Source: Candidatus Beckwithbacteria bacterium (lineage in GTDB: Bacteria; Patescibacteriota; Microgenomatia; UBA1400; CG1-02-47-37). From it: a stretch of 64,000 nt of DNA. The DNA lies in assembly GCA_026397255.1 (NCBI GenBank), contig JAPLVF010000013.1, positions 251,532-315,531 on the forward strand, written 5' to 3'. Numbering within the stretch: position 1 is the first letter of the stretch; the number at the start of each line of letters is the position of its first letter. The position numbers and the translations under genes were made by a program. The notes under the pieces are model-generated. The model saw nothing but the letters and a program-made list of their open reading frames with translations. It had not been told where the DNA came from and did no database searches. Positions 11,932-54,784 of this stretch are shown here, piece after piece.

Positions 11932-13134
11932 TCAGCGCCAGGTAGGTAACCAGAACCAATATTTTAGTAAGTTTACAGGTAGTGGTATTGCGGTATTTAA
12001 GGGGTAGAAGAAAATAAAAGTTATAATCGTTATAAATATTATAAATTTTATAATTTTGGCTGGCAGAGCGTTAACCACTTGAGCTAAAATTAAACATAAA
12101 AAGGGCAGGGCGGGCAGATAGTGATGTAAAAACATAATCCGGGGAGAAAAAACGAAAGGAAAAAAGAGAAAGAAATAACAAATCAGAAGAAATAAATTGC
12201 TGCAGAAAATTAAGGAAATTAAACCGCCCCAGAAAACTAACGGGTTGCCAAGATTATAAATATTGGCGACAGAATTTTTAAAATACTCAACATAAAACCA
12301 AACCGGCCGGATTAGAAACGGCCACTGCCAGGCAGAAGACTGATAAGAGTGAGTGGCGGTAAGGTGGGTTTGATACCAAATAATTTGCTTGTGAAGATCA
12401 AAAAAACTGGTCAAGCTGCCGCCGCGGAGAAATAACTGAGAATAAGAGAGAAAATAAATAATCACTGTAATAAGTAATATGTAAACTGTAAACAAAAATT
12501 TTTTGGGAGATCTAATCAGAAAGAAAATTAGGTAAATCGGAAAAAGCAAGACGGCAGAATGTTTGGTGGCCACGGCCAAGCCGGTAAAAATAGCAGTAAG
12601 AAAGAGATTACGATAAGGAGACGCCTTCACATGCGTAAAGGAGTCTCCTTTAATAAATCGACAAAAGAAAGTGAGGGCAAAAATAATCCAGGTAGTCACA
12701 AAAATATCATTCATGGTAATCCGCGACATCGTCAACTGAAGATTGTCAAAAGCAAAAAAAGCGGCAGCCATTAAAGCGATTTTTTTATTTTTAAATAATG
12801 TCAGGGCGAAATAATAAAGGGCGGCAATGGAGATTGTCCCAAAAAGGGCACTGGGGAATCGCCAACCGAAACTGTTATCGCCGAAAATCTTAACTGAGTT
12901 CGCTTGAATTAATTTAGCTAAAGGCGGATGAAGCCAATCATAGGCGGTATTGGGTTCGGGCGCTTTGGCAAAGGGATTATAGGCATCAAGGTTCCCCTGA
13001 CTAATCGCCCGCACGGCCGGAACATGATAAACCTCGTCGAAAACATAGGCAGCCGGGACACCCAAGCGGAAAACCCGCAGGAAAAAACTAACAACGAGCA
13101 ACAACCATAACGCTCTCGTGTAAAATGGTTTCAT
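11932..13134 (-). CDS. GT-C fold membrane glycosyltransferase, GT39/PMT-ArnT-like (protein O-mannosyltransferase family). The start is tentatively placed at MKPFY.
   Basis: A loop-1 motif YVFDEVYHVPA (DE motif) is typical of PMT/GT39. There are more than 10 TM helices. An in-frame palindromic element sits at 12615-12650. The track ORF extends to 13248. Confidence 0.6.
   Translation of the reverse strand: MKPFYTRALWLLLVVSFFLRVFRLGVPAAYVFDEVYHVPAVRAISQGNLDAYNPFAKAPEPNTAYDWLHPPLAKLIQANSVKIFGDNSFGWRFPSALFGTISIAALYYFALTLFKNKKIALMAAAFFAFDNLQLTMSRITMNDIFVTTWIIFALTFFCRFIKGDSFTHVKASPYRNLFLTAIFTGLAVATKHSAVLLFPIYLIFFLIRSPKKFLFTVYILLITVIIYFLSYSQLFLRGGSLTSFFDLHKQIIWYQTHLTATHSYQSSAWQWPFLIRPVWFYVEYFKNSVANIYNLGNPLVFWGGLISLIFCSNLFLLICYFFLFFPFVFSPRIMFLHHYLPALPFLCLILAQVVNALPAKIIKFIIFITIITFIFFYPLNTAIPLPVNLLKYWFWLPTWR
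12615..12650. repeat. Palindromic hairpin element family A, copy 1 (AAGGAGACGCCTTCACATGCGTAAAGGAGTCTCCTT), located inside the GT39-like CDS.
   Basis: Read directly from the sequence. Translated in-frame on the minus strand as KGDSFTHVKASPY. Confidence 0.85.
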
Positions 13135-14566
13135 GCTGTCTATTGTAGCAAGTTTTGTTTTTTGGCTTGGCTGGGTTGGGTTTTTTACGATTACCTGGAG
13201 CCATGTTCTGGTGAAAGAGGCAGCGGGCTGGTGGTCAAGTTGCGCCAATTGTTGGGGCGATTGGTCGGCCCACCTGGCTTATACGACCAGTTTTGCCTAC
13301 GGCCACAATTTCCCGCCACAACTGCCGATAATGGCCGGCCACAAATTCAGTTATCCGTTTCTGATCGACTGGTTGTCAGCCATACTCGTGAAATTGGGCT
13401 TGGATTTAAGATGGGCATTAATTATCCCCGGCTGGATTCTATCGTTAATTTTGATTTGGCTGATTGTCAGATTGGGGCAAAAATTAACCGGCAGCTTGGC
13501 GGTGGGCCGGTTGGCCTCATTGATTTTTTTATTTAACGGCGGCAAGAAATTTTTAAATATTGTGGTAGCCCAATTAATGCCGCAAAGAGGCTGGTTGTTG
13601 GGCATGAGTTTAGGGATAATTATTTACTTATTGTTTTGGCAGTGGCTGGAAAAAAAGCAAAAAAAATATTTATTAATTGCCGGGATAATTGCCGGCTGCC
13701 TACCCTTAATTCATTTACATTCATTGGCGGCAGTGATTTTTGTAGCCGGGTGGTTAGTAATATTTAATTTCTCCCGGCAGTGGCTGTATTTTTTCCTACC
13801 ATTGGCTTTGTTGGCCACACCCCAGATATTAAGTTTTTATTCTCTGGGATTACATTTAATTAAGTTTAACCCGCAGTGGTTAGGTTTAGACCTAGGCTTA
13901 GTGATAATTTTAGGATTGATCGGTTTTATCAAGGCGGATAAAAGACTTAAAAAATTTGTTCTGCCTTTTTGGGGATTATTTATTTTGGCTAGTTTATTTG
14001 TTTTCCAGCCATTTGATTGGGACAATACCAAGATTTTTGACCATTGGTATTTAATGCTGGCAATTTTAGCCAGCCTCGCCTTACAAAAAATGTGGCAAAA
14101 ATCCTGGTGGTTAAAAATTGGGGCAGGAATTTTGTTTGGTTTAATGATTTGGCCAGGTTTGGCGGAAACGATTAAATTTAACCAGTACCAAAAAAATAAA
14201 TATTTGTTTTTCGGTAATGAAGAGCTGGCTTTAGCCGAAGTGGGTAAAAAAAACATTCCCCCGCAGGCAGTGGTTTTAACCGCCAGTAATCATAACCATT
14301 GGCTGCCAACTTTAACCGGGAGAAAAATTGTTTTAGGTTATACCGCCTGGTTATGGTCCTATGGCGTTAATTACCAACAAAGAGAGGCAGATGTAAAATT
14401 AATGTATCAAACGGGGAGCAAATCATTGCTGGAGAAATATAAAGTTAATTATGTGTTAATCGGGCCGGAAGAACGCCGTCAATTTAGGGTAAATGAAGCT
14501 TGGTTTAACAAGAATTTTCCGGTAATTGAATTGAACAGAGAGAATAAACTTTACCAAATCAACTGA
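13133..14566 (+). CDS. Polytopic membrane protein, probably a GT-C-type glycosyltransferase. The start is ambiguous.
   Basis: 477 aa with roughly 12 TM helices and a C-terminal soluble domain. The start codon is interleaved with the divergent gene's start at 13132-13135. Confidence 0.5.
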   Translation: MLSIVASFVFWLGWVGFFTITWSHVLVKEAAGWWSSCANCWGDWSAHLAYTTSFAYGHNFPPQLPIMAGHKFSYPFLIDWLSAILVKLGLDLRWALIIPGWILSLILIWLIVRLGQKLTGSLAVGRLASLIFLFNGGKKFLNIVVAQLMPQRGWLLGMSLGIIIYLLFWQWLEKKQKKYLLIAGIIAGCLPLIHLHSLAAVIFVAGWLVIFNFSRQWLYFFLPLALLATPQILSFYSLGLHLIKFNPQWLGLDLGLVIILGLIGFIKADKRLKKFVLPFWGLFILASLFVFQPFDWDNTKIFDHWYLMLAILASLALQKMWQKSWWLKIGAGILFGLMIWPGLAETIKFNQYQKNKYLFFGNEELALAEVGKKNIPPQAVVLTASNHNHWLPTLTGRKIVLGYTAWLWSYGVNYQQREADVKLMYQTGSKSLLEKYKVNYVLIGPEERRQFRVNEAWFNKNFPVIELNRENKLYQIN

Positions 14567-14579
14567 AAACTGACAGCAG

Positions 14580-15746
14580 TTAAAGAAGATTACGCAGCAG
14601 CAGACAGTAAAAAACCGCATACTGCTGATTGTGCTGATAAAAATTTTCAATAAATTGGGTGTAAAACAAAGGGTAAACTAACTGGTCAAAAATAGCGATA
14701 AAGGCTAATAAAACAAACATTAATAAATATTTAAGCTTATTGTTTTTTTTGAACTCTAAAAACGGAAACAAAGATAAAAACCACCAAATATATTGCGGAT
14801 TAAGATTTTTGGAAAAAACCAGAAAAATTAAAGTCAGGCAAAAAATAATGGCAAAATTGAATTGTTTAAAGTAAGATCTTTTAAACCACAAGAATAAATA
14901 AAATAAACCTACCGGCAGCAACCAGATTGAATTAAAAAACGGCAGCTTTAGGCTAGTAATAAAGTTTAAGTTAATTCCCCAAACTCCATAACCACCCAAT
15001 GGGGGCGGTGGTTGATGAAATTTTAATAAAGAGGTTGCAGTTAAAAGGCTTGCAGGCACGCTTTCGATGCTGACATATTTATTTTTATGAAAGGCTAAGG
15101 TTTCAGCTATCTGTTCCCATCGCCCTCCGAAAGCAAAAAAGATTAAAACCGGTAAAATAATGGCGCCTAAATAAAATAAAATAAATTTTTTTAGTTTCGG
15201 CAGCTGATGGCGGTAAAGAAGAAATAAGTAGGGCAAAAAAATTATTGGGTAAATTTTAATACCGGTGGCCAAACCCAAAGCCAAGCCCGAAAAAGAGAGT
15301 TTCTGCTTCTGCCAAAAAATTAGGCCTAAAATTATTAAGAAAGCGGCAAAAGTATCAAAGCGAAATAAGCTGATTGGGCCGAAACATAAAATCAAGATTA
15401 AAAATTGCCATCGGCGGCGGGAAAGCAAAAAACTGATAAAAATAATTAATAAATTGAGCCAAATGACTGCTTTTAAATATAAGGCGTAGTTGAGCTTAGA
15501 CCAGCCGGAAAAAATTGCCGGAAGAAAATTATAAAAAAGAGTGGCCGGTAGCAGTTCATTGTCTTTATAGCTTCCAAAAGAATTATGTTTAAAAAAGGCG
15601 GTTAAGCGCGTATACCAAACCCAAACATCTACCTGTAAATGGGCATTCCAAAGCGGATTTTGCGACTGAAAATAAAGAGCTAGAAAAACAAGTAAGCCTA
15701 AAACTCCCAACAAAATTGATTTTTTTCTGAGTAAAATATTAAGCAT
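14580..15746 (-). CDS. Polytopic membrane protein, GT-C/GT87-like putative glycosyltransferase.
   Basis: 388 aa with about 11 TM helices. Family not resolved. Confidence 0.45.
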   Translation of the reverse strand: MLNILLRKKSILLGVLGLLVFLALYFQSQNPLWNAHLQVDVWVWYTRLTAFFKHNSFGSYKDNELLPATLFYNFLPAIFSGWSKLNYALYLKAVIWLNLLIIFISFLLSRRRWQFLILILCFGPISLFRFDTFAAFLIILGLIFWQKQKLSFSGLALGLATGIKIYPIIFLPYLFLLYRHQLPKLKKFILFYLGAIILPVLIFFAFGGRWEQIAETLAFHKNKYVSIESVPASLLTATSLLKFHQPPPPLGGYGVWGINLNFITSLKLPFFNSIWLLPVGLFYLFLWFKRSYFKQFNFAIIFCLTLIFLVFSKNLNPQYIWWFLSLFPFLEFKKNNKLKYLLMFVLLAFIAIFDQLVYPLFYTQFIENFYQHNQQYAVFYCLLLRNLL

Positions 15747-15761
15747 AACTAAAATTCTAGC

Positions 15762-17204
15762 ATGAAAAAGATTATTGTAATCGCGATTTTTATTCTAGCC
15801 TTGGGGTTGAGAGTTTATAAATTGAGTTTGAGCCCGCCGGGATTGTATGCCGATGAGGCGTCCATCGGTTACAATGCCTACTCTATCTTGAAAACTGGGA
15901 AGGATGAACATGGAGTTGCCTGGCCAATATTTTTCCAGGCCTTTGGTGATTATAAAAATCCGGTATTTATTTATTCTTTGGCGCCGCTAATCAAGCTAAA
16001 TGGTTTAAAACCAGAGACAATCCGCTTGGGAGCGGCTATCTGGGGCAGTCTGGCAATTCCCTTGTTAATGGCGGTGGCTTGGGCAGCGACGGCAAACTTT
16101 ACTTTAAGCTGTTTGGCTGGAGTAGTTTTGGCCTTAATGCCGTGGCACCTCCATTACAGCCGGCTAGGTTTTGAAGCGATTACTTTGCCAACCTTAATGC
16201 TTTTATCTTTATGGTTATTTCTTAAATGGCTAAAAAATAAAAAAATTCTCGCGGGGATCGCTTTGGCGCTAAGTTTATTTTTAATGTTTTACAGTTATAC
16301 CACTGCCCGCTTGTGGATGCCGCTATTGGGTTTGATTTTACTAATACTTTTTCGCAAACAACGGTTGAGTTTGACTAAAAAAATAGTTGTTTTTGATTCG
16401 CTGCTAATAATGTTTTTACCGCTTTTGATCTGGCTTAGACAATTTCCGGATAGTTTAACGGCACGGATGAATCAAATTGCCATTTGGGCAGATAAGCCCC
16501 CTTTGCAAAAAATGTGGCAACGTTTTTGGTCGACCTATGCCGGCCATTTTACTTTCAGCTGGCTTTTTTCCCGGGGCGACACAACCATCCGTCACTCCAG
16601 CGGCATCAGCTCAGAAATGCTGTTAAGTTTTGCCCCCTGGTTAATCATTGGTTTAATCATGCTAATAAAACAATGCCGCAAACAACCTTTTTGGCAGCTG
16701 ACCTTAATTATGATCGGCCTATTCCCGTTAGCGGCGGCTTTAACCCAAACCAGCCCGATTGCCACCAGAACTTTACAAGCGACCCCATTTTTCAGCCTGG
16801 CAATTGCTTGGGGAATAATAAAATTAAAAAAGCCGTTGTTGATTATTTTGGCCTTGATAATTATCGGGTTGGAGTTCGGCCGTTATTACCGGGATTTAAT
16901 TTATTTTTATCCAAAACGGGTGAGTCAACCGTGGGATGGTTTTGATAGCCAACTGGGCCCAGCCATTAAAACGGCTTACCAGAAAAGCCAAGAACAAAAA
17001 AAGCCATTATTTTTATCTAGTAAAATCGAGCAAGCTTATATTCAGGGTTTGTTTTTTACCCAAGCTGATCCCCGGCTCTGGCAGACAAAACATCAGACTC
17101 CATTTACGGTAGCTAAGTTTAAGGCAGTTAAAGCTGGTGAGATATGGGTGATTACCCGAGACGAATGTCCGCAAAAAGATAAAGATTATTGCGTTTTATT
17201 CTGA
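15762..17204 (+). CDS. GT-C fold glycosyltransferase, ArnT/PMT (GT39/GT83)-like.
   Basis: N-terminal loop YADEASIGYNAYSILKTGKDEHGVAWPIFF carries a DE motif and basic loop as in ArnT/PMT. About 12 TM helices and a C-terminal soluble domain. Confidence 0.65.
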   Translation: MKKIIVIAIFILALGLRVYKLSLSPPGLYADEASIGYNAYSILKTGKDEHGVAWPIFFQAFGDYKNPVFIYSLAPLIKLNGLKPETIRLGAAIWGSLAIPLLMAVAWAATANFTLSCLAGVVLALMPWHLHYSRLGFEAITLPTLMLLSLWLFLKWLKNKKILAGIALALSLFLMFYSYTTARLWMPLLGLILLILFRKQRLSLTKKIVVFDSLLIMFLPLLIWLRQFPDSLTARMNQIAIWADKPPLQKMWQRFWSTYAGHFTFSWLFSRGDTTIRHSSGISSEMLLSFAPWLIIGLIMLIKQCRKQPFWQLTLIMIGLFPLAAALTQTSPIATRTLQATPFFSLAIAWGIIKLKKPLLIILALIIIGLEFGRYYRDLIYFYPKRVSQPWDGFDSQLGPAIKTAYQKSQEQKKPLFLSSKIEQAYIQGLFFTQADPRLWQTKHQTPFTVAKFKAVKAGEIWVITRDECPQKDKDYCVLF

Positions 17205-18235
17205 TAAAGAAGTTCGGAAACGTAAGAATAGACAGACTGCCAGTTATTGTTAACCGGCAACAAGACCCACTGGCCGTAAAGACTACTGGGCGGATTGTAT
17301 AAAAGAGCGGGAATATCTTCGCTGCTGCTGCCTTGGTCAACGATCCCGGTGCGCAGACTGGAAGATTTAACTCTTAAAACCAGCTTAACTAAATCAATAT
17401 AGCTAGAGGTAGAAAGATCGGTTTTGACAGCATGCTTAAATTCTTGGTAAAGAGCTTTAAGCTTGGCAGGATTTAATAAAACGGAGGGTGATAACACTTT
17501 GTCTTTGAAGGCCAATAAAACCAATTGCTGGCGTTGGGCCCGGGCATAATCACTCCCTTCCTCTCCCTGGGAATAGCGGGAACGGACATATTTTAACGCC
17601 AGAGAACCATCCATGTGCTGTTGGCCGGGAGAAAAGGTTAAGGCTTCGTAGCGGCTGGATTCGGGTTCGGCGGTTTCTTTGCCCGGAACCGGATACTGCG
17701 GGTCGGTAAAACCATGAAGAACATTAAGATCAATTCCGCCCACAATATCGATGGCTCTTTCAAAACCGGAGAAATCCAGAAGAACAGCGTAATGGACCGG
17801 CTGGTTAATAATCTCGGAAACAGCACTTTTAGCCAAAACCAGGCCGCCGCCCAACTGCTTGGCTTCACCAAATTCGTAGGCAGTATTAATTTTAGCGGAT
17901 AGGGATTCTATCCAAATATCGCGCGGCAAAGAAATAAGAACCGTATCCGAGTGAGTTAAATTAACAGAAATAAACATAATACTGTCGGTTAAGTCGGCGC
18001 CGGGATGATCGCCGCCGCCAATACCCAGAAGCAAAAAGTTGGTGCGGCCGCGAAAAGAATTAAGCTGAGTAATGGCCGGATTAATCAGAGAAAAAATTTT
18101 AGTCAGCGGCTTGGTTTTCGGGATAAACCAGATAAAAAATAGAATGATTAAACTAATAACCGCTAAATAAAAAACCGGCCGGAGAAAGAGAATAAATTGG
18201 TAAGTACGACGTTTTAATTTAGGCACTAAAGACAT
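17186..18235 (-). CDS. LytR-CpsA-Psr (LCP) family glycopolymer phosphotransferase.
   Basis: N-terminal TM, then LLLGIGGGDHPGADLTDSIMFISVNL...LISLPRDIW... The LCP core motif is present. Confidence 0.8.
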   Translation of the reverse strand: MSLVPKLKRRTYQFILFLRPVFYLAVISLIILFFIWFIPKTKPLTKIFSLINPAITQLNSFRGRTNFLLLGIGGGDHPGADLTDSIMFISVNLTHSDTVLISLPRDIWIESLSAKINTAYEFGEAKQLGGGLVLAKSAVSEIINQPVHYAVLLDFSGFERAIDIVGGIDLNVLHGFTDPQYPVPGKETAEPESSRYEALTFSPGQQHMDGSLALKYVRSRYSQGEEGSDYARAQRQQLVLLAFKDKVLSPSVLLNPAKLKALYQEFKHAVKTDLSTSSYIDLVKLVLRVKSSSLRTGIVDQGSSSEDIPALLYNPPSSLYGQWVLLPVNNNWQSVYSYVSELLYQNKTQ

Positions 18236-18249
18236 GTTATGATTCTAAC

Positions 18250-19989: not shown

Positions 19990-21016
19990 AGATATCAGTC
20001 AAGCCGACAAAGACGCTTTTAATCAAAAAGCCGGGCATCCGCTGCAAGCCTATGAATGGGGGCAATTCCGTGAATTAACCGGAGTGAAGGTAATCAGAAA
20101 AGGTATTTTTGAAGGGAAAAAATTAATTACCCCAATGCAAGTAACCATTCATCCCCTGCCTGCGCAGGCAGGTTTGCCAAAAATAAACTTGAATATTGGT
20201 TATTTTCCTAAAGGACCGATGCCGGATGAAACACAGCTTAAGGTTTTAAGGCAAATCGGGGAAGAAAATCGGTGCTTGTTTATTAAGCTGGAGCCAAATG
20301 TTCCCCGGGCTAGCGCCTCGGAGGCGATCGATAAATTTTTATTTGACCGCGGCTGCAAAAAAGGCCGGCCGATGTTTACCAAATATACCTTTGAATTAAA
20401 TCTCAAAGAATCCGAGGAAACGCTCTTGAAAAACATGCATCCAAAAACCCGCTATAACATTAACTTGGCACAAAGAAAGGGCGTTAAGGTGGTGGCCGAC
20501 AATTCCCAAAAGTCATTTAAGTGGTTTATAAAGCTACTGTTTGAAGAAACGGTCAAGCGGCAGGGTTTTTATAGCCATACGCCCGACTATTTTGCCAAAA
20601 TGTGGCAAGTGTTAAAACCGACGGGGATGGCACAAATTTTGCGGGCAGAATATCAGGGAAAAATTTTGGCAACTTTTATGGTGTTTGTCTTTAACAACAA
20701 AATTTATTACCCTTACGGCGCTTCCACGCGCGAGGACAAAGAGTTAATGGCGCCGAATTTAGTCATGTGGGAAACAATCCGTTTGGGTAAAAAATTGAAT
20801 TGTCAAAGTTTAGATATGTGGGGAGCATTGGGGCCGAAACCAAACCCCAAAGACCCCTGGTATGGTTTTCATCGGTTTAAACAAGGGTACGGAACAAATT
20901 TGATCGAGTTCTTGGGAAGTTATGATTTGGTGCTTAGGCCAAAGGCCTACGGGCTTTACCGAATAGCGGAAGAATTACGCTGGCTAGGCCTGAGATTAAA
21001 AGCAAAAATTAGATGA
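19979..21016 (+). CDS. FemAB/FemX-family aminoacyl-tRNA:peptidoglycan-precursor aminoacyltransferase.
   Basis: YYPYGASTREDKELMAPNLVMWETIRLGKKLNCQSLDMWGA matches the C-terminal FemABX (GNAT-fold) core. Confidence 0.65.
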   Translation: MIIRDISQADKDAFNQKAGHPLQAYEWGQFRELTGVKVIRKGIFEGKKLITPMQVTIHPLPAQAGLPKINLNIGYFPKGPMPDETQLKVLRQIGEENRCLFIKLEPNVPRASASEAIDKFLFDRGCKKGRPMFTKYTFELNLKESEETLLKNMHPKTRYNINLAQRKGVKVVADNSQKSFKWFIKLLFEETVKRQGFYSHTPDYFAKMWQVLKPTGMAQILRAEYQGKILATFMVFVFNNKIYYPYGASTREDKELMAPNLVMWETIRLGKKLNCQSLDMWGALGPKPNPKDPWYGFHRFKQGYGTNLIEFLGSYDLVLRPKAYGLYRIAEELRWLGLRLKAKIR

Positions 21017-22895: not shown

Positions 22896-22911
22896 AAGTT
22901 GTTGTATTATA

Positions 22912-41366: not shown

Positions 41367-41367
41367 C

Positions 41368-42835: not shown

Positions 42836-42848
42836 AGTTTATTCTACC

Positions 42849-42875
42849 AAAAACCCCGGCGGAAAACCGGGGTTT
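42849..42875 (-). terminator. Rho-independent terminator for groESL: AAA-CCCCGG-cggaaaa-CCGGGG-TTT, with a T5 run on the minus strand.
   Basis: 6-bp GC stem with a 7-nt loop. The flanking A and T tracts make it read as a terminator in both directions. Confidence 0.6.
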
Positions 42876-42900
42876 GGAGTTTAATATTAAAAAGCGTACA

Positions 42901-44529: not shown

Positions 44530-44541
44530 ACTTCGACTCCT

Positions 44542-44936: not shown

Positions 44937-44951
44937 GGGCAGTTTCCAATA

Positions 44952-46196
44952 TTATTGAGATTTTATTATTTTGGTGGTGGAGATTTGGGGGTTGTGAGGC
45001 AGGACGATGACGACGCGGCCGCCGGAGCACTGCATAGTCCGGCGCTTGACGGCAAGGTTTGGAGTGCTACTAGAAACAGCCAAAATATCCGGCTTAATTT
45101 GATTAATTAAAGCGCTATGGTCTTCGTCAGAATCGAATTTTTCCGGAAGAGGAAAAACTTCATCGCTAAGCTTTAATTTTTGTAAATTTTTTATTCTTAC
45201 TTCTAATTTATTAATTGGCCGGCCGGGACCTTTAAGCTGGCGAACACGCTGGTCGGCTTCGACGCCAACTAATAAAATACCGCCTTGGTTTTTTGCGGCC
45301 AAAAGCAGTTTTTTATGCTCAATGTGTAAGATGTCGAAAACGCCGGTAACGAGAATTATTTTTGTAGCCTTATGATATTTTTTTAAAACAATCTCTCCGG
45401 TCGGCCGGGGATGAAAAAAAGCAAAGTGACGGCCGATTTTTTCGTGGGTAATTTTTCGCTTCATGTAAAAGTATTGAAATTTAAAAGCTAAAGATTCAAA
45501 AAAATCCATTAATAATCCAATAAGGTCCGACCTTTTTTCAGATTTGTCTTTTAAGGTCGGACCTTGAGGAAAGGAGGGGCCTTGGAAAAAGTTGGGTAAG
45601 TATTGTTTGTACCATGAGTTGGCTGTTAAAAAATTTTGATAGGCTTGGTCACGATTATACAGCGGTTTTAATTGGCAAAGCTCATGGGCGGTATATAGGT
45701 TTTGTTGGGCTAAGATTAAAGCGGATTCGTCCAAAAAAAGATTGAGACAAAAACGGTTGTTAATTTTGTGGCCGCGGCGAAGACGAAAAAATAATAAAGC
45801 AGTTAATAATAAACGAGCTAACCAAAGACGGTTTTTACTAGTAATAATTAATAAATCAATGTCGTCATTTTCAATGCTATTATTCATGCTTAAAGCGCCG
45901 GTAACACCAACTAATTTTATCCAGGGAATCAGGGAAAAAAGCCACTTAATTTGCTTAAGTTTCTGCCACTTTAATTGACTAAAGTGCCAACGTTTTTTTC
46001 TTAAACTCACCAGTTTTTGCCGACCGGGAAGATGAAAATAGGAAGAAGTTGTCCAATAAGGAGACACCTTCGCATTCGCAAAGGAGTCTCCTTTAATGGG
46101 GGAAAATTTAATGACTTCTTCTCTGGTTAAGGGATAGTCAAAAATATCGGCATAGGCAACGGGGGCTAAAATTCCCCGATTAGTTAGCCACGCCAT
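44952..46196 (-). CDS. Two-domain protein with an N-terminal nucleotidyltransferase-like region and a C-terminal cytidylyltransferase-like (RfaE-II/TagD-type HxGH-fold) domain. The start was moved to MAWLTN. It contains an in-frame palindromic element.
   Basis: C-terminal ILVTGVFDILHIEHKKLL...RPINKLEVR (nucleotidyl transfer motif). N-terminal DDIDLLIITSKNRLWLARLL. The element at 46058-46093 encodes KGDSFANAKVSPYW. Confidence 0.5.
   Translation of the reverse strand: MAWLTNRGILAPVAYADIFDYPLTREEVIKFSPIKGDSFANAKVSPYWTTSSYFHLPGRQKLVSLRKKRWHFSQLKWQKLKQIKWLFSLIPWIKLVGVTGALSMNNSIENDDIDLLIITSKNRLWLARLLLTALLFFRLRRGHKINNRFCLNLFLDESALILAQQNLYTAHELCQLKPLYNRDQAYQNFLTANSWYKQYLPNFFQGPSFPQGPTLKDKSEKRSDLIGLLMDFFESLAFKFQYFYMKRKITHEKIGRHFAFFHPRPTGEIVLKKYHKATKIILVTGVFDILHIEHKKLLLAAKNQGGILLVGVEADQRVRQLKGPGRPINKLEVRIKNLQKLKLSDEVFPLPEKFDSDEDHSALINQIKPDILAVSSSTPNLAVKRRTMQCSGGRVVIVLPHNPQISTTKIIKSQ
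46058..46093. repeat. Palindromic hairpin element family A, copy 2 (AAGGAGACACCTTCGCATTCGCAAAGGAGTCTCCTT), located inside the CDS 44952-46196.
   Basis: Read directly from the sequence. Identical to copy 3 including the 5' flank CCAAT. Translated in-frame as KGDSFANAKVSPYW. Confidence 0.85.
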
Positions 46197-47640
46197 ATTG
46201 CGACAACACCTGGGAAACTCCTTGAGATAAGTTTTTGGTAATATCGGTTTCGGACTGGTTTTTAAGATAACCATTAATGGCGTCTTCATAATATTTAATC
46301 AGTTTAGTGTCCAAACCGTTATCAGAAGTGTTAGCAGCCATCGGCCAAGATTGGGCGGTTAAGCCAGTAGCAACAATTGCCCCCAAATACGGGTCGGCTT
46401 GAAGCTGGCTGGCCATGTCCTGACGAGGATAGGGTTCACCGAAAAGCCTAGATTGAGAAGCAGAGTTATAGAGTTTAATTAATGCCTCACGGGAGCTTAA
46501 ATATTTAACAAAATCCCAGGCGGCAGCCTGATTAGCGGATTTTTTGGAAACTCCTTCAAGCCAATAGGTGGCCCAATTAACATTAGTGCCGGGCAGTTGA
46601 GGAACAGGATAAAGTTTAAAATTTAATTTGGGATTGGTCTGTTTAATTTCCAGGGCGCGCCAGGACGGGGCAATTATCATGGCCACCTTACCCGTAGCAA
46701 AAGCCAGGGTAGAGTTGGGCAAGGCGTCACTCCAAGAACGATCCTGGGTGACAAAAAGGGTATAAAATTTTAAGGCAGAGGTGACGGCTTCTGTATCGGC
46801 CTTACCGGGATTGCCGCCGTTTTGCAAAATCATCAGGCCTAAAATATCGGAAAAATTATCCACGTTGCTGGCAGCGCCTAAGGCGACGCCGGCCCGGGTG
46901 GGAATCCCCCGGGCATCTCTAGTGGTTAAATTAAAAGCGGTTTGGCGCAAGTTATCCCAGGTGGCCGGCACCTTTAAAGAGGAATCCTGACTAAAAATAT
47001 CTTCATTAACATATAAGGCCAAAGCATCAAACATTAAAGGGACGCCGTAGTAATGTCCGTTAAAGAAAACGTCTTTTTTAACCACCGGGTAAAAAGTCGT
47101 GTCAAATTCATTAGGAGAATAAATGGTGTCCGGGATCGGGGACAAGTCAGTTTTAAACATCGGCAGCCAAGTATTGTGCCAGCGGAAAATATCCGGGCCG
47201 CCGCCTTTAGCCAGGCTGGACTGCAACCGTTCGCGGTAGTCCTGAGACGATTGAAGCAGGTACTGAATGGTGACGTTGGGGTGAGTGGATTGATAGTCGC
47301 TGATAATGGAGGCCATTAAATTTTCCGGCTCCCAGAGACCCCAATATTGCAAGGTAATTGTCTCCGGAACTTTGGGTTTTTGAAATTTTGGCAAAATCAC
47401 CTTGGTGACTAAAAGAAAGAGTAAAAATAAGAGGGCAGCACCGATTAATAACGGGAAAATGTGCTTGAAAAACGGCTCGGAAACCTGATTAGGGGCGGCC
47501 GGCTCGCCTGGTGGCGGGGTGGACGGCACTCCTTCGCCAGAGGTTTCGACGGGCAAGGCCGGGGCGGTTAACGAACCTCCTTCGCCAGGAGCTTCGGCGG
47601 TTGAGATCGGAAAGGGTGGTTCAACAACGTCGCTAGACAT
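46180..47640 (-). CDS. Family-1 extracellular solute-binding protein (sugar ABC-type SBP), membrane-anchored with a Pro-rich N-terminal tail. No permease or ATPase genes are adjacent.
   Basis: TLQYWGLWEPENLMASIISDYQSTHPNVTIQY... is the SBP_bac_1 pattern. The N-terminal 60 aa are Pro/Glu/Gly-rich and followed by a TM. Confidence 0.7.
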   Translation of the reverse strand: MSSDVVEPPFPISTAEAPGEGGSLTAPALPVETSGEGVPSTPPPGEPAAPNQVSEPFFKHIFPLLIGAALLFLLFLLVTKVILPKFQKPKVPETITLQYWGLWEPENLMASIISDYQSTHPNVTIQYLLQSSQDYRERLQSSLAKGGGPDIFRWHNTWLPMFKTDLSPIPDTIYSPNEFDTTFYPVVKKDVFFNGHYYGVPLMFDALALYVNEDIFSQDSSLKVPATWDNLRQTAFNLTTRDARGIPTRAGVALGAASNVDNFSDILGLMILQNGGNPGKADTEAVTSALKFYTLFVTQDRSWSDALPNSTLAFATGKVAMIIAPSWRALEIKQTNPKLNFKLYPVPQLPGTNVNWATYWLEGVSKKSANQAAAWDFVKYLSSREALIKLYNSASQSRLFGEPYPRQDMASQLQADPYLGAIVATGLTAQSWPMAANTSDNGLDTKLIKYYEDAINGYLKNQSETDITKNLSQGVSQVLSQYGVAN

Positions 47641-47667
47641 TATGTTATCATCTTAACAAGAGCGATT

Positions 47668-49374: not shown

Positions 49375-50360
49375 ATTAGCTTTTGCTGTTCTAGACTGGC
49401 CGGTGGGTTTTTGCCAAAATGGGAATAGGCTTTGGGGGTGGCAAAACGGCCGCGGGGGGAACGCTTTAAAAATCCAATCTGCATTAAATAGGGCTCTATT
49501 ACCTCTTCGATGGTTTCTTTATCTTCACTAATAATCGCGGCTAAAGTTTCCAGGCCAACCGGACCGCCTTGATATTTATCAATTAAAGCCCTTAAAAGCC
49601 GACGGTCGTTGGCATCCAAGCCCATTTCATCAACTTCCAAAAGCGCCAAAGATTCATCTAAAACCGCTTTGGTAATCCCCGATTCGCCTTGAATTTGGGC
49701 GAGGTCACGACAACGCTTTAAAAGTTTTAAAGCAATCCGAGGGGTACCTCTGGCCCGGCGGGCTAAACTCTCGGCTGCGGCCGAATCGAGATTAATTTTG
49801 AGTTTGTGACTGGCGTTTTTAAGCACCTGCATTAAGTCTTCGGGCTCATAAAAAGTTAAGCGGTGAACAATACCAAAGCGGTCACGCAAGGGAGCGGCAA
49901 TTAAACCGATCCGGGTGGTGGCGCCGATAAGGGTAAACTTGGGTAAATCCAGTTTTAAAGTTCGGGCGGACGGACCCTGGCCGACGATAATATCCAAGTG
50001 ATAATCCTCCATCGCCGGATAAAGCGTTTCTTCAACGATTTTGGGTAAACGATGGACTTCGTCAATAAAGAAAATGTCACCTTGGTTTAAGTTGGTTAAA
50101 ATTGAGGCCAAGTCCCCGGCCCGCTCCAAAGCCGGCCCGGAAGAAGCACGAATATTAACATTTAATTCTTTAGCAATTAAGTGAGCCAGGGAGGTTTTGC
50201 CCAAACCGGGCGGGCCGTAAAGCAAGATATGCTCAACCGGCTCTTTTCTTTTTTTGGCGGCAGATAAAGCCACCCGTAAAGCTTTTTTAATTTTCCCCTG
50301 GCCAACAAAAGTATCCCAGGAGTCGACCCGGAGATTGGGAAATAAATCTTGTTTATCCAT
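49371..50360 (-). CDS. ruvB: Holliday junction branch-migration ATPase RuvB.
   Basis: LLYGPPGLGKTSLA, DEVHRL, and the C-terminal winged-helix region. Confidence 0.95.
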   Translation of the reverse strand: MDKQDLFPNLRVDSWDTFVGQGKIKKALRVALSAAKKRKEPVEHILLYGPPGLGKTSLAHLIAKELNVNIRASSGPALERAGDLASILTNLNQGDIFFIDEVHRLPKIVEETLYPAMEDYHLDIIVGQGPSARTLKLDLPKFTLIGATTRIGLIAAPLRDRFGIVHRLTFYEPEDLMQVLKNASHKLKINLDSAAAESLARRARGTPRIALKLLKRCRDLAQIQGESGITKAVLDESLALLEVDEMGLDANDRRLLRALIDKYQGGPVGLETLAAIISEDKETIEEVIEPYLMQIGFLKRSPRGRFATPKAYSHFGKNPPASLEQQKLI

Positions 50361-50362
50361 AA

Positions 50363-50938
50363 TTATTTTTTGCCTAATAATTTAATGGCTTGAGAAATCT
50401 TCGCCTCTAAGGTGGGTTGGTCGCTAACCTGATTCAAGGCTTCGCGGGCTTCTTGCCGGGAAAAGCCCAGGCTGGTTAAAGCATTAACCACGTCTTTAGT
50501 GACGCTGGTATCGCTGGTTAAGTCCAGCTCTTTTAAGCTACCGAGCTTGGATTTTAATTCAATAATAATTTTTTGGCTATTTTTGCGGCCCAGGCGAGGC
50601 ACAGTGGTAAAAAAATCAACGTCGGCCTGATTAACCGCCTGAGTAATGGCGTTGACACCTTTGTCCATAATATGAATGCCAGTTTTGGGGCCGACACCGG
50701 AAACAGAAATAATTAATTTAAATAATTGAAGTTCGTCTTTGGTGGCAAAACCATAAAGATCCAGAGCATCATCACGAACATGGGTGTAGATAAATAAAGT
50801 GCGGGGTTCGGAGTACGGAGCGCGGAGTGATTCAAGAAGTTTTTGAATGACAAAAACTTTATAACCAACACCGTTAACGTCAAGAATAATCGATTCGCTG
50901 TCTAAAATTTCCGCTTTGCCGGTAAGTTTGGCGATCAT
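50363..50938 (-). CDS. ruvA: Holliday junction DNA helicase subunit RuvA.
   Basis: MIAKLTGKAEI...GVGYKVF... with an HhH region (SGVGPKTG). Confidence 0.9.
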   Translation of the reverse strand: MIAKLTGKAEILDSESIILDVNGVGYKVFVIQKLLESLRAPYSEPRTLFIYTHVRDDALDLYGFATKDELQLFKLIISVSGVGPKTGIHIMDKGVNAITQAVNQADVDFFTTVPRLGRKNSQKIIIELKSKLGSLKELDLTSDTSVTKDVVNALTSLGFSRQEAREALNQVSDQPTLEAKISQAIKLLGKK

Positions 50939-50942
50939 TAAC

Positions 50943-51431
50943 TTATTTTATCTTATTTCCCAACTTATTACTAAAGGCGTGGGTGAGAGCAATCGCCAGA
51001 GCATCGGCGACGTCATCGGGTTGAGGAATAGTATTTAATTTTAAAATTGATTTAACCATTTGCTGGACCTGAGTTTTTTCGGCGCGGCCATAACCGGTGA
51101 CAGCCATTTTTACCTGCAGAGGAGTGTAAGAAAAGATTGGCATATTAAGCTTTTCTGCCGCAAGCAAGATAACCCCCCTAGCCTGCGCTACCTTAATGAC
51201 CGTAGTTTGATTTTTAAAGAAAAACAGGCTTTCGACGGCCACGGCAGCGGGTTTAATTTTACTTAGTATTTTGGTAAAGCCGGCAAATAATTTTAAGAGC
51301 CGTTGAGATTCGGACAATTTAAGGCTGGTTTCCAAACAGCCGTAATCGCCTACCTGACAGTCGTTGTTTTTTTCGGACACGACTCCCCAACCGATTCTGG
51401 CTGTACCGGGATCAACACCTAAAATAAGCAT
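50943..51431 (-). CDS. ruvC: Holliday junction resolvase RuvC.
   Basis: MLILGVDPGTARIGWGVV... The catalytic Asp/Glu pattern is present. Confidence 0.9.
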   Translation of the reverse strand: MLILGVDPGTARIGWGVVSEKNNDCQVGDYGCLETSLKLSESQRLLKLFAGFTKILSKIKPAAVAVESLFFFKNQTTVIKVAQARGVILLAAEKLNMPIFSYTPLQVKMAVTGYGRAEKTQVQQMVKSILKLNTIPQPDDVADALAIALTHAFSNKLGNKIK

Positions 51432-51460
51432 AAGATAATTATAATGGTAAAATAGAATTT

Positions 51461-53548
51461 ATGGATAAACAGTATCAGCCGAAAGAGTTTGAGGCAAAAA
51501 TTTACCAGATGTGGGAAAAGTCAGGCGCGTTTAAACCGACAGCGAAGGGTAAGCCGTACACGATTATTATGCCACCGCCGAATGCGAATGATCCGTTACA
51601 CGTAGGCCACGCAATGTTCGTGACAATTGAAGATATTTTTATCCGTTATCATCGGATGTTGGGTGAAGCAACTTTGTGGCTGCCGGGAACCGATCATGCC
51701 GGAATTGAAACTCAATATGTGTTTGAAAAGAAACTGAAAAAAGAAGGCAAAAGCCGCTTTGATTTTGACCGGGAAACTTTATACCAAATGATTTGGGATT
51801 ACGTGCAGAAAAATAAAACTACAGCAATTGATCAAATGAAAAAATTGGGGGCAAGCGCTGATTGGACCAAGCTAAAATTTACTTTAGATAAAGATATTGT
51901 CGATCAGGCATTGGACGCATTTATTAAATTATATAAAGACGGGTTGGTTTACAGAGGCTTGAGGCTCGTTAATTATTGTACCGGATGCGGAACAGGTTTT
52001 TCTAATTTAGAAATAAATCACATCGAGAGAACTGAACCACTTTATTACTTAAAATACGGCCCATTTACTTTGGCAACAACCAGACCGGAAACTAAATTTG
52101 GGGATACGGCGGTAGCAGTTAACCCAAAAGACAAGCGTTATCAAAAATGGATTGGTAAACAAATTGAGGTCGAGGGACTAGCGGGAAAATTTAAATTAAA
52201 AGTAATTAGTGATAATTATGTCGACATGAAGTTTGGCACAGGAGTAGTAAAAATTACGCCAGCCCATGATTTTAATGATTATGAGGTGTGGCAAAGACAT
52301 AAAAACGAAATTCCTCAACCAAAACAAGTAATCGACTTTAATGGCAAGCTAAATGCTTTAGCCGGCAAGTATCAAGGGATGAAAATTAATGAGGTTAGAA
52401 AAGTGATTGTTGAAGATCTAAAACAAAAAGGATTGATGGTAAAAATTGATGAAAATTATCAGCATGCTCTGGCTGTGTGTTACCGCTGCGGCCGAACAAT
52501 TGAACCATTGCCCATGGCCCAGTTTTTCATTAAAGTTAAGCCTTTAACCAAAAAAGTCTTGGCTTCCTTGAATAAGGGTGAGGTAAAAATTTATGGATCA
52601 GGCAGGGAAAAAATTCTTCGTCACTGGTTGGCTATTTTAGACGACTGGAATATCTCCCGACAAATTGTTTGGGGTATTACTATTCCAGTTTGGTACTGTA
52701 ATAAAAAGACTAATGATCCGGGTCAGTGTTTTGTGGTTAGTCAAACAAGGCCAAAAAAGTGTCCCAAGTGTGGGGCGACTGAATTCGAAGCGGAAACTGA
52801 CACTTTTGACACCTGGTTTTCCTCTTCTCAATGGCCCTTCCTTACACTTAGGGCAAGTCCTGACAAGAATGATTTTGAACGTTTCTATCCAACCAGCTTA
52901 ATGGAGACAGGTTATGATATTTTGCCGATTTGGGTAATGCGAATGTTAATGATGGGTTTGCATTTAACCGAAAAAGTGCCATTTAAACAAGTTTATTTAC
53001 ATGGCTTGGTAAGAGATGAAAAAGGACAAAAGATGAGTAAAAGTAAAGGGAATGCGATGAATCCGCTGGATGTGGTAGAAAAATACGGAGCCGATGCCTT
53101 AAGAATGGCTTTAGTGATGAGCACGACAGCCGGACAAGATAGCACCGTAGGTGAAGGAAAAATCCGGGGAATGCGAAATTTAACAAATAAGATCTGGAAT
53201 GCAACAAGATATGTGCTTAATATGCCTGAGCAAAAAGGACAATCGAAATACGAAAAAGAATTGAAAGAAAATTTAAAAATAAATATTAAAACTGTTACTG
53301 GTAGATTAAACAAGTTAAAACCTGGACAGGCCGCAGAGTGGATTTATGATTGGTTTTGGCATACTTATTGCGACCGTTATATTGAGTTGGCAAAAAAAGG
53401 GCTAATCGGGAAAAAATTAATGATTGAGGTTCTGCAAACAAATTTAAAACTCCTCCACCCGTTTGTGCCGTTTGTGACCGAAGCGGTTTGGCAACAATTG
53501 CCGGGAAATAAAGAAAAGTTGTTAATAAATTCAAGATGGCCAAAATAA
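51461..53548 (+). CDS. valS: Valyl-tRNA synthetase, short form (695 aa) lacking the C-terminal coiled-coil.
   Basis: PPPNANDPLHVGHA (HIGH), GTDHAGIETQ, editing-domain motif GTGVVKITPAHDFNDY, KMSKSKGN. Confidence 0.9.
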   Translation: MDKQYQPKEFEAKIYQMWEKSGAFKPTAKGKPYTIIMPPPNANDPLHVGHAMFVTIEDIFIRYHRMLGEATLWLPGTDHAGIETQYVFEKKLKKEGKSRFDFDRETLYQMIWDYVQKNKTTAIDQMKKLGASADWTKLKFTLDKDIVDQALDAFIKLYKDGLVYRGLRLVNYCTGCGTGFSNLEINHIERTEPLYYLKYGPFTLATTRPETKFGDTAVAVNPKDKRYQKWIGKQIEVEGLAGKFKLKVISDNYVDMKFGTGVVKITPAHDFNDYEVWQRHKNEIPQPKQVIDFNGKLNALAGKYQGMKINEVRKVIVEDLKQKGLMVKIDENYQHALAVCYRCGRTIEPLPMAQFFIKVKPLTKKVLASLNKGEVKIYGSGREKILRHWLAILDDWNISRQIVWGITIPVWYCNKKTNDPGQCFVVSQTRPKKCPKCGATEFEAETDTFDTWFSSSQWPFLTLRASPDKNDFERFYPTSLMETGYDILPIWVMRMLMMGLHLTEKVPFKQVYLHGLVRDEKGQKMSKSKGNAMNPLDVVEKYGADALRMALVMSTTAGQDSTVGEGKIRGMRNLTNKIWNATRYVLNMPEQKGQSKYEKELKENLKINIKTVTGRLNKLKPGQAAEWIYDWFWHTYCDRYIELAKKGLIGKKLMIEVLQTNLKLLHPFVPFVTEAVWQQLPGNKEKLLINSRWPK

Positions 53549-53556
53549 ATTCCAAT

Positions 53557-53600
53557 AAGGAGACACCTTCGCATTCGCAAAGGAGTCTCCTTTTAAAATA
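53557..53600 (+). terminator. Intrinsic terminator of valS, formed by copy 3 of the palindromic element (AAGGAGAC-A-CCTT...AAGG-A-GTCTCCTT) followed by TTTTAAAATATTT.
   Basis: The hairpin lies 9 nt after the valS stop and is followed by a T-run. Confidence 0.6.
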
Positions 53601-53642
53601 TTTAATAACTCTAGGCAAAAGTGTTTACCGGCCGGTAAAACC

Positions 53643-53662
53643 GATCCGCCAGCTGGCGGATC
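53643..53662. repeat. Perfect 20-nt palindrome GATCCGCCAGCTGGCGGATC, family B copy 2.
   Basis: Read directly from the sequence. Related copies at 44866-44885 (AATCCGCCAGCTGGCGGATT) and 59969-59984 (TCCGCCAGCTGGCGGA). Confidence 0.85.
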
Positions 53663-53668
53663 CCCTGT

Positions 53669-53988
53669 TGAAAAAAATAAAAATTGTTTATTTGTTGGTG
53701 GTTTTGTTAATTGTCGGAATGATCGGCAACTATCAATATTGGCAGGAGAAAAGAGCGTTCCAGGCCAGCCAAAAACAAAAAACTGTAATTCAGCAGGAAA
53801 TTGTTTCATTGGAAAAAGAGCTAGAAAAAAAACCGGAATACCGGGATGTTTTATTAAAATTAGCGCTATTAAATTACCAGATTTTGGAGACGGAAAAAGC
53901 AAAAGAGTACTGGAATCGGGCAAATTATCTAGATCCAAATAATTTAGAAGTGCAAAAAATCGGAGAGGTTATTTCTTCTCAGCTTTAG
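53669..53988 (+). CDS. Small membrane-anchored TPR-like protein, with a tentative TTG start. The track ORF from 53536 reads through the valS terminator and is probably 5'-overextended.
   Basis: TM IVYLLVVLLIVGMIG followed by helical repeats (...EYWNRANYLDPNNLEVQKIG). Confidence 0.3.
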
Positions 53989-54712
53989 GCTCGGACTTAG
54001 TTTCAGGCTTGGCAGCTTCTTTTTTAGGCTCAGGTTTGACACCAGGCTTAGGCTCCTTCGCCAAGGCTTCGGCGCCCGAAGCGGGTTTGGCTTCACCTTC
54101 AGCCGGAACAGCGGCTTCGACAACTGGCGCGGCAACGACTTCTTCTTTGGTCGGCTCTTCAATCTTAACTACCAACTCATCTAAGTTCTCGGACATTATT
54201 TTAACTTTGGCGGTATCGACCTTAATATCTTTCAAACTAATCCCCTGGCCGATTTCTGCCAATTTAGAAACGTCAATCATGAATTTTTCCGGTAAGTCCC
54301 GGGGTAGGGCTTCAACTTCTGTCTCATGAATTAGCTGAATGAGAACGCCGCCCTTGGTGGTGGCCGGGGCAATGCCGCTAACCTCAACCGGAATGGCGAC
54401 AACAACTTTCTTGGTCAGGTCAACCTGGTGAAAGTCCGCGTGTAAAATTTCGTCAGTAACCGGATGTTGTTGAACTGAATGAATTAAGACCGGGCGTGGC
54501 TTTGCTTCTTTGATTATTTCCAGGTCTAAAATGGCGGTTTCTCCGGCTTTGGCGAAAACCGCCTTAAATTCTTTGGCAGGAATTTGAATGGATAAAGATT
54601 TAACATCTTTACCATAAATATTGGCGGGAATAATCCCCTGGCGGCGGAGTTGTTTAACCTTACGGCCGGAAATTTTTCTTGGTTCAGCTTTTAATTTCAG
54701 ATTGTTTGGCAT
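53969..54712 (-). CDS. rplY: 50S ribosomal protein L25 / general stress protein Ctc, with a Lys/Glu/Pro/Ala-rich C-terminal extension.
   Basis: MPNNLKLKAEPRKISGRKVKQLRRQGIIPANIYGK... is the bL25 N-domain. The C-terminal 60 aa are low-complexity (EAKPASGAEALAKEPKPGVKPEPKKEAAKPE). Confidence 0.85.
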   Translation of the reverse strand: MPNNLKLKAEPRKISGRKVKQLRRQGIIPANIYGKDVKSLSIQIPAKEFKAVFAKAGETAILDLEIIKEAKPRPVLIHSVQQHPVTDEILHADFHQVDLTKKVVVAIPVEVSGIAPATTKGGVLIQLIHETEVEALPRDLPEKFMIDVSKLAEIGQGISLKDIKVDTAKVKIMSENLDELVVKIEEPTKEEVVAAPVVEAAVPAEGEAKPASGAEALAKEPKPGVKPEPKKEAAKPETKSEPKAEKK

Positions 54713-54748
54713 AACGAGGATAATAACATAATAAATACAAAAATTCCA

Positions 54749-54784
54749 TTAAGGTGACGCCTTCACATTCGTAAAGGAGTCACC
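54749..54784. repeat. Palindromic hairpin element family A, copy 4 (AAGGTGACGCCTTCACATTCGTAAAGGAGTCACCTT), intergenic. It is a likely terminator of the 1039-aa gene and lies upstream of rplY.
   Basis: Read directly from the sequence. Carries compensatory stem changes (GGTGAC/GTCACC versus GGAGAC/GTCTCC in copies 1-3). Confidence 0.8.

Follow-up and report, generated by a model that had tools for sequence, protein, structure and literature searches.

A miniature hairpin repeat with strict polarity, mostly carried inside protein genes of Microgenomates-type Patescibacteria

A stretch of 64,000 nt from a Candidatus Beckwithbacteria bacterium (assembly GCA_026397255.1, contig JAPLVF010000013.1, positions 251,532 to 315,531), all of which is called the window here, carries five copies of a short hairpin repeat. 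One copy lies in a gene for a PMT/GT39 glycosyltransferase and two lie in a gene for a cytidylyltransferase fusion; the other two are intergenic, one on either side of the L25 gene and the first of them close to a class I aminoacyl-tRNA synthetase (aaRS) gene. An origin-type gene cluster with dnaA and dnaN is found near the right end. Together with related copies from other Patescibacteria, the repeats form a family at the DNA level, with subfamilies defined by a variable block of four nucleotides (N4) and with copies at non-homologous sites within and between genomes. Orthologous sites vary between filled and empty, and most copies are in frame and read through as a short hydrophilic loop. 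The positions are collected in Table 1. Related contigs or loci carry labels of the form L0xx, orthologous proteins labels of the form P0xxx.

An earlier note on this DNA had described four copies. A search with the consensus pattern recovered these four, compared with none expected in shuffles, and the total for the window rose to five hairpin copies of 36-44 nt, again with none in shuffles. A covariance model applied to the whole window with filters off found the same five and nothing further; they score 41-70 bits on the minus strand versus 20-28 bits on the plus strand. The positions given earlier hold for copies 1 to 3, whereas that of copy 4 (54749-54784) was 2 nt off. Copies 2 and 3 are, as had been said, identical with shared flanks: the identity covers 43 nt (46052-46094 and 53551-53593), with one copy genic and the other intergenic. 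That two copies lie within coding sequence is also borne out, copies 1 and 2 being inside open reading frames (ORFs). Copies 3 and 4, which had been placed directly after stop codons, are near stops but separated from them by gaps: copy 3 begins 8 nt past the stop codon that ends the class I aaRS gene, and copy 4 lies 9 nt past the stop of the gene at its right and 38 nt ahead of the start of the L25 gene. The ORFs that cross copy 3 have no Pfam match. The subtype of copy 4, TGAC, is also found after groEL in another Patescibacteria metagenome-assembled genome (L001 2115-2150). Copy 5, the modular AAGG/N4/CCTT structure, the one-sided ATTGG tail, the preferred reading frame and the strict co-orientation were not part of the earlier description.

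Table 1. Hairpin copies and other features of the window; bit scores are those of the covariance model
Feature	Position	Strand	Description
Copy 1	12615..12650	-	N4 = AGAC; in frame in PMT/GT39 glycosyltransferase gene; peptide KGDSFTHVKASPY; 62.5 bits (20.5 on +)
Copy 2	46058..46093	-	N4 = AGAC; in frame in cytidylyltransferase-fusion gene; peptide KGDSFANAKVSPY; 68.5 bits; unit including ATTGG tail 46053-46093
Copy 3	53557..53592	-	Intergenic; element same as copy 2; 69.8 bits
Copy 4	54751..54786	-	N4 = TGAC; intergenic; 59.9 bits
Copy 5	45522..45565	-	AAGG TCCG A CCTT, 18-nt loop, AAGG T CGGA CCTT; 44 nt; N4 = TCCG; in frame in same gene as copy 2; peptide QGPTLKDKSEKRSDL; 41.4 bits
Solo arm	45571..45583	.	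AAGGAGGGGCCTT; 5 nt away from copy 5
Second solo arm	58549-58561		AAGGGGCCTCCTT; inside jag/KhpB-like gene
PMT/GT39 glycosyltransferase gene	11932..13248	-	Host of copy 1
Cytidylyltransferase-fusion gene	44952..46289	-	Host of copies 2 and 5
Class I aaRS gene	51461..53548	+	Ends before copy 3
Long non-coding stretch	53593-53968		376 nt, from copy 3 to L25 gene end
Palindrome CCGCCAGCTGGCGG	~53648-53661		G+C-rich; within the long non-coding stretch
L25 gene	53969..54712	-	Starts beside copy 4
Gene right of copy 4	54796..57915	-
jag	58520-59044	-	Origin-type cluster
yidC	59028-59816	-	Origin-type cluster
rnpA	59999-60337	-	Origin-type cluster
dnaA	60590-62002	+	Origin-type cluster
dnaA-dnaN spacer	62003-62166		A+T-rich; several overlapping palindromes at 62084-62158
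dnaN	62167-63297	+	Origin-type cluster

The plan of the repeat was recognised via the DNA of orthologous genes. Its general form is AAGG-N4-N-CCTT-loop-AAGG-N-N4'-CCTT. The four 4-nt blocks are constant, N4 and N4' are complementary yet variable, with 12 N4 types seen, and the loop between the inner blocks has 7-18 nt. On the C-rich strand the unit reads about ATT-(A/C)AAGG-N4-T-CCTT-U.G-RC-loop-GY-AAGG-Y-N4'-CCTT-ATYGG. The core of the element measures 33-44 nt and the inserted unit about 45 nt, i. e. 15 codons. The tail is one-sided and appears as CCTT-ATTGG on the minus strand of the window, which is CCAAT-AAGG on the plus strand.

Folding of the copies, which the earlier note had proposed, gave a common hairpin throughout. 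In each copy a stem of 8 bp is followed by a 1x1 mismatch, 4 bp, a mismatched C.A that on the opposite strand is a U.G wobble, and 2 bp closing a tetraloop, with energies of -10.4 to -13.8 kcal/mol as DNA and -18 to -24 kcal/mol as RNA and with z-scores of -5 to -7.6. The two internal mismatch positions are conserved in nearly all copies. The hairpin of the C-rich strand is the more stable one, by 1-3 kcal/mol (DNA) or 4-5 kcal/mol (RNA), its RNA energy being -22 to -24 kcal/mol versus -18 to -19 on the opposite strand. Wobble cells show the same bias: 31 U.G cells are present on the C-rich strand, which would be A.C mismatches if reversed, versus at most 5 in the opposite sense.

In copy 4 the outer stem GGTGAC/GTCACC replaces GGAGAC/GTCTCC, a double substitution that preserves pairing, and the innermost pair covaries between A-T (copies 1 and 4) and G-C (copies 2 and 3). 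The first change had been pointed out before, the second was encoded in the earlier pattern as R...Y, and both are real. The pattern recurs among 32 distinct 36-nt copies, where 99% of cells are paired and both sides have changed in 7 of 15 pairs. The covariation score of this set is 0.429 compared with 0.113 for shuffles, and none of 500 shuffles matched it; the N4 pairs entering the score were partly selected by the scan itself, whereas the inner RC/GY pairs and the metagenome set described below were not. The view that the similarity is not due to chance, and that the repeats are a genuine family, has held up.

Several related sequences depart from the standard form. At L001 7175-7220 the orthologous site of window copy 2 is occupied by a variant consisting of AGGG-TTCG-A-CCCT, a 20-nt loop and AGGG-T-CGAA-CCCT. 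All four clamp blocks are altered jointly here, AAGG to AGGG and CCTT to CCCT, as though each 13-nt arm had to remain end-palindromic in its own right. A covariance-model match of 82 nt at L027 11696-11777 combines normal arms with a very long loop and may be an element bearing an insertion in its loop. The solo arm beside copy 5 is probably a leftover half-element, and the L001 orthologue has an equivalent solo arm ahead of its element at the copy 5 site; the chance expectation for solo arms (AAGGN5CCTT) is 1.94 per window, and this lone arm lies within it, as does the second solo arm of Table 1. A further hairpin repeat, different from the present one and built on GGTTCCGAAC / GTTCGGAACC, was seen at L012 2522-2554 and 11939-11967 and at L027 11975-12030, on contigs that also bear AAGG elements.

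About three quarters of all copies are inside coding sequence (31 gene-embedded copies). Genes with in-frame copies encode the PMT glycosyltransferase, the cytidylyltransferase fusion, a class I aaRS, ArgRS, Wzy, a PBP transpeptidase and UppS. Copies are grouped two or three per gene with uneven spacing, and in some lineages PMT genes hold three each. The frame K/Q-G-x-S-F-A-x-A-K-V-x-P-Y-W is used by 21 of the 31. For copy 1, the Pfam PMT match extends through the element, and in the AlphaFold model the segment is a low-confidence loop (163-172) between two helices. Eight PMT orthologues (P0004, P0007, P0008, P0009, P0011, P0031, P0074 and P0117) do not have it. Elsewhere this site, PMT site 1, is occupied by elements of the AGAC, TCCG, ACGC, ACTC or ATTC type. 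The closest filled/empty pair, P0003/P0004 with 86% amino-acid identity, shows a 15-codon difference. The element of L004 is identical to copy 1 at 35 of 36 positions, the host proteins being about 64-67% identical, and a PMT orthologue closer than that of L004 bears a different subtype from copy 1.

Orthologues of the cytidylyltransferase fusion have three or four element sites, each either empty or filled with varying subtypes. The copy 2 site is empty in P0123, carries a related element in P0122 (KGLSFTNVKVSPY) and in P0127 (KGDSFAPAK), and holds the variant hairpin described above in L001. Site 3 holds an element in L001 but none in the window, the difference being exactly 15 codons. In L033 the 44-nt subtype represented by copy 5 is found elsewhere in the orthologous gene, and its loop agrees with that of copy 5 at 14 of 18 bases. 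The alignment of these orthologues also shows, at the hot spots of sites 2 and 3 and in several proteins, longer recurrent peptides such as GRSLTGDPAEGRVGTAKPEG and RTLPNRNSRLPAEKGPPAGG; these segments may stem from larger repeats, of a single family or of several. On a related contig, L029 488-3355 is a UvrD-type helicase gene with Hint/intein domains.

Among the intergenic copies, 7 of 9 lie 8-38 nt past a stop codon, and both orientations relative to transcription occur. Among the gene-embedded copies, 26 of the 30 that can be oriented are sense on the C-rich strand. The 376 nt that follow copy 3 in the window are an unusually long non-coding stretch for such a compact genome. They contain only the unsupported ORFs 53536..53988(+) and 53531..53938(-), which have no Pfam match, and the stretch has no Rfam match.

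The constraint on the element falls on the nucleic acid rather than on the protein. The third bases of the TCC, AAG and CCT codons vary hardly or not at all. For the Ser of K-V-S-P-Y the codon is TCT when N4 is AGAC and AGT when N4 is ACTC. Further reading frames of the element are translated, e.g. KVRPLRTRRSDLI, SRSVLCEREGRTL and KDSPLRSEGESL. Since third bases are invariant, the Ser codon family switches, intergenic copies exist and several frames are used, selection for a peptide is not what keeps these sequences alike. The mirror-image frame on the opposite strand is shut by the TAA in CCAATAAGG, as read directly from the sequence. We attribute the dominance of the frame K/Q-G-x-S-F-A-x-A-K-V-x-P-Y-W to tolerance, the equally benign frame of the other strand being closed.

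Beyond the window, a metagenome scan was run with the AAGG/CCTT blocks fixed, N4 and loop free, and complementarity not demanded. It returned 21 loci, 20 of them real: N4 is complementary at 4 of 4 positions in 19 and at 3 of 4 in one, and the last locus appears to be a chance match. In all the DNA collected, a generalised scan gave 51 hits compared with 0 in shuffled sequence, which correspond to about 41 distinct copies on Patescibacteria contigs after merging of overlapping loci. A scan of the genome collection with N4 fixed to NGAC yielded a single further real copy, in L001; its matches in L002 and L003 were rejected as chance. Within a genome the N4 type tends to be uniform: L009 has three ACTC elements, the L001 gene has ACTC in both full copies and in the solo arm, and Ga0233431 has three TCCG elements. 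One 36-mer is shared without any change by UppS (L013/L024) and an aaRS (L016). No element is present on two of the related contigs, 8-9 kb long, or in the 10 kb to the right of dnaN. Three scans of viral contigs gave 0 hits, blastn against phage and plasmid collections gave no meaningful match, and a protein search with a 45-aa concatenation of element peptides gave no candidates. The earlier note had recognised no established family, and none emerged here: Rfam, at gathering and relaxed thresholds, returned only chance-level hairpin matches (at most 21.5 bits versus thresholds of 37 to 195), and no description of the family was found in the published literature. A CRISPR repeat was considered as an identity and rejected; the copies are 0.5-33 kb apart, inside genes and not regularly spaced.

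In all multi-copy contigs the copies have a single orientation (5 of 5 in the window). This co-orientation persists where the host genes are on opposing strands, as in L025 (ArgRS on +, Wzy on -), in L017 and for window copy 3 versus the rest. Nine extra copies are in independent gene contexts, so that the chance of co-orientation is about 2^-9; one copy, at L008 4304, has an ambiguous orientation. That the gene strand alone sets the orientation is ruled out by L016, L017, L025 and window copy 3. CCAAT is borne by the G-rich strand in the window, and likewise in each of the ten independent contigs whose absolute GC skew exceeds 0.1. On the plus strand of the window the GC skew is positive almost everywhere, and it does not change sign at the origin-type cluster or in the 10 kb beyond (L031). 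A chromosome-wide G/C strand disparity has been reported for the order UBA1400, Beckwithbacteria included (PMC7143001), and the skew of the window and L031 matches it on both sides of dnaA-dnaN. The spacer between these two genes, with its overlapping palindromes (Table 1), could be an origin unwinding region. Just right of dnaN, the source organism has at L031 3744-7377 a stretch that holds type IV secretion/conjugation-like genes (a VirB4/TraG-type P-loop ATPase and a TraC-like protein) and could be an integrated mobile element.

We interpret the repeats as a mobile element, namely a miniature DNA hairpin that is lineage-specific to Microgenomates-type Patescibacteria, and give this reading a probability of about 0.62. 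It is favoured because subfamilies cross genomes, because identical copies are found at non-homologous sites, because the filled/empty polymorphism is of constant size, and because the kinship of the elements disagrees with that of the host genes (L004 versus copy 1). Spread within genomes would be by copy and paste, ongoing or recent, and the copies seen today would be those insertions that kept the frame and fell in tolerant loops; survival of such insertions only would also account for the dominant frame. Recent spread is indicated by the identity of copies 2 and 3, by the 36-mer common to UppS and an aaRS, and by the L004 element with its near-identity to copy 1. The polarity might have its cause in replication acting on the element as a folded single strand, in analogy to REP/RAYT and IS200/IS605, or in a survival or loss of the hairpin that depends on which replication template carries the element. 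ATT-like triplets stand beside many copies, and the whole element is an inverted repeat.

Several points weigh against mobility. Pfam scans of the small ORFs of the window revealed no transposase, and phmmer searches of about 300 kb, a small part of any genome, found nothing with IS608 TnpA and E. coli RAYT as queries, which is a weak test. When filled and empty alleles were aligned by codon, neither a consistent target-site duplication nor an exact boundary emerged, the alleles being too diverged. Single REP-like hairpins are generally held to be immobile alone, as the REPIN literature has it. The same protein sites have been hit repeatedly (PMT sites 1 and 2, three cytidylyltransferase sites), and pairing is near-perfect also at seemingly old orthologous sites; this re-use and persistence would equally fit a selected function, gene conversion or template switching instead of repeated transposition. 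Moreover, the sample of related loci is biased, as these were retrieved via the element itself or via two host genes.

Copies 3 and 4 had earlier been taken to behave as intrinsic terminators. This is not supported: the terminator scan, which looks for a stem plus a T-tract, was negative for both, the T-run of copy 4 is on the plus strand whereas both flanking genes are on the minus strand, and about three quarters of the copies are intragenic. As an identity the intrinsic terminator was therefore rejected, there being no U-tract on the transcribed strand and most copies being genic. A wider possibility is a functional cis-acting RNA structure in mRNAs and operon spacers (a 3'-end stabiliser, terminator, RNase site or translational pause) that is kept by selection on the transcript. 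The strand that mostly serves as mRNA sense does form the better hairpin, as seen in the wobble cells and the RNA energies, most orientable genic copies are sense, and most intergenic copies follow a stop codon. Yet it is the chromosome and not the gene that sets the orientation: copies are antisense in L016 (two), in the L017 aaRS and in the L025 ArgRS, and at window copy 3, L012 12337 and L026 they are reversed when compared with the gene upstream. Loop and N4 vary freely while unrelated genes carry identical copies, and the sense excess is explicable by frame tolerance, given the TAA that closes the mirror frame. With the U-tract missing as well, we consider a transcript function unlikely, although it comes first among the alternatives weighed here. 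The next in rank, and unlikely too, is that the cell uses the hairpins as polar DNA signals of the chromosome, e.g. for priming, fork or segregation in a presumed unidirectional replication, and that they reside in genes because almost no intergenic space exists. The strict co-orientation and its link to the G/C strand asymmetry (see also PMC7143001), the conserved mismatch positions and one-sided ATTGG/CCAAT tail, and the pairing maintained at orthologous sites despite host protein identities of 55-75% would all suit such signals. However, many orthologues do without the element at a given site, so that no single copy is needed; the two element-free contigs and the empty 10 kb beside dnaN, together with the clustering within genes in place of an even spacing, do not fit, and no partner protein is known.

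The arms are essentially perfect everywhere, genes included, and one N4 type prevails per genome (L009, L001, Ga0233431). Both could result without selection or mobility if old quasi-palindromes are kept perfect by intra-strand template switching and homogenised by ectopic conversion; quasipalindrome correction is an established mutational mechanism. But this process does not place additional copies at non-homologous sites, of which copies 2 and 3 and the two sites of the 44-nt subtype are examples, and it leaves the two uncorrected mismatch positions unexplained. As a sole explanation we hold it to be improbable and rank it below the polar signals, but template switching could act alongside mobility. 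The recurrence of the peptide K/Q-G-x-S-F-A-x-A-K-V-x-P-Y-W across many proteins might also suggest a duplicated gene fragment or a selected peptide motif, and operators for a dimeric DNA-binding regulator are palindromic as well. These origins are very improbable: genic and intergenic copies are identical, the host proteins are unrelated, other reading frames are used, third-codon positions are invariant with a Ser TCT/AGT switch that follows N4, and operator half-sites would be conserved and not varied complementarily. The duplicated gene fragment, which the earlier note had named as a case that would refute a mobile or structured element, thus fails on the unrelated hosts and the identical genic and intergenic copies.

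To come back to the mobile element, a more far-reaching interpretation can be proposed, which we regard as unlikely. The hairpins may be the substrate or tool of a strand-specific process tied to the one-directional asymmetry of UBA1400. This could be a new kind of single-stranded DNA transposition, based on single hairpins and with no HUH transposase to be recognised, by which loops of 15 codons are written into essential proteins, or else the hairpins could be polar replication signals of the host that were pushed into coding sequence.

Members of the Patescibacteria have been described as almost without mobile elements (PMC7143001). The present repeats would be the smallest known family that routinely resides in bacterial protein-coding genes. 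They appear to be a main source of loop-length variation in the envelope enzymes and aminoacyl-tRNA synthetases of these organisms, with consequences for gene calling, protein alignment and phylogeny in Patescibacteria. Their strict polarity is also an independent sequence marker for the unexplained G/C strand asymmetry of UBA1400, which makes the replication mode of these chromosomes more directly testable.

The resemblance to repetitive extragenic palindromic (REP) sequences, MITEs (transposable elements of the miniature inverted-repeat type) and Rickettsia palindromic elements (RPEs) that the earlier note had seen is apt. RPEs are palindromic sequences of about 150 bp that lie in frame in unrelated protein genes and are translated without destroying the gene (PMC10969869). 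Both kinds are palindromic repeats of bacteria with reduced genomes, in frame in ORFs and encoding a conserved peptide. However, the core here is 33-44 nt and the unit about 45 nt, about three times smaller than an RPE, and the build of the element is modular: its AAGG/CCTT blocks are fixed and its complementary N4 varies freely. The host belongs to another phylum; no sequence relation to RPEs is claimed, and the two are set apart without a direct comparison to RPE consensus sequences. To our knowledge, a one-sided tail and contig-wide co-orientation have not been described for RPEs.

REPs are imperfect palindromes of about 35 nt with internal mismatches and a GTAG flank, in the established model recognised as a folded single strand by RAYT. 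The present family is analogous to REPs and REPINs in the size and imperfection of the palindrome, the conserved mismatches, the one-sided flank, the many dispersed copies and the genome-specific subtypes. In contrast to them, its flank is ATTGG/CCAAT instead of GTAG, and its copies are single, co-oriented and about three-quarters intragenic, whereas REPs are extragenic and often occur as inverted doublets (REPIN/BIME). No RAYT was matched in the small ORFs of the window or in about 300 kb, a weak test on a small genome fraction. As for MITEs, diverged alleles gave no consistent target duplication, and no insertion sequence was seen in the collected DNA.

Members of IS200/IS605 insert beside a short specific sequence without duplication and excise seamlessly. 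Insertion and excision of this kind would explain why the same sites are re-used by different subtypes, and the ATCGG carried by the empty PMT site of L029 would fit such targeting. IS200/IS605 and palindrome-associated transposable elements (PATEs) also share with the present family imperfect hairpins and a strand-specific orientation, which is gauged here by the G-rich strand. But those elements have two distinct hairpin ends and exceed 100 bp, whereas here one hairpin is the entire element, and no Y1/TnpA was seen in the small ORFs of the window or in the about 300 kb searched.

Hairpin repeats are known from organelles too, e.g. the double-hairpin elements of Allomyces mitochondrial DNA. 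Another example is the coding palindromes of Nematomorpha mitochondrial DNA (PMC6649704). As in the present case, short hairpin repeats are tolerated there in protein genes of very compact genomes, but the hosts are eukaryotic organelles and the sequences and sizes are unrelated. Chromosome-wide polarity is not known to us from organelle hairpin elements. We regard the family as previously undescribed, akin to the REP, MITE and RPE kinds but belonging under none of them, and set apart by an unusual pair of traits: it sits routinely and in frame in essential genes, as loops of 15 codons, and its polarity is strict.

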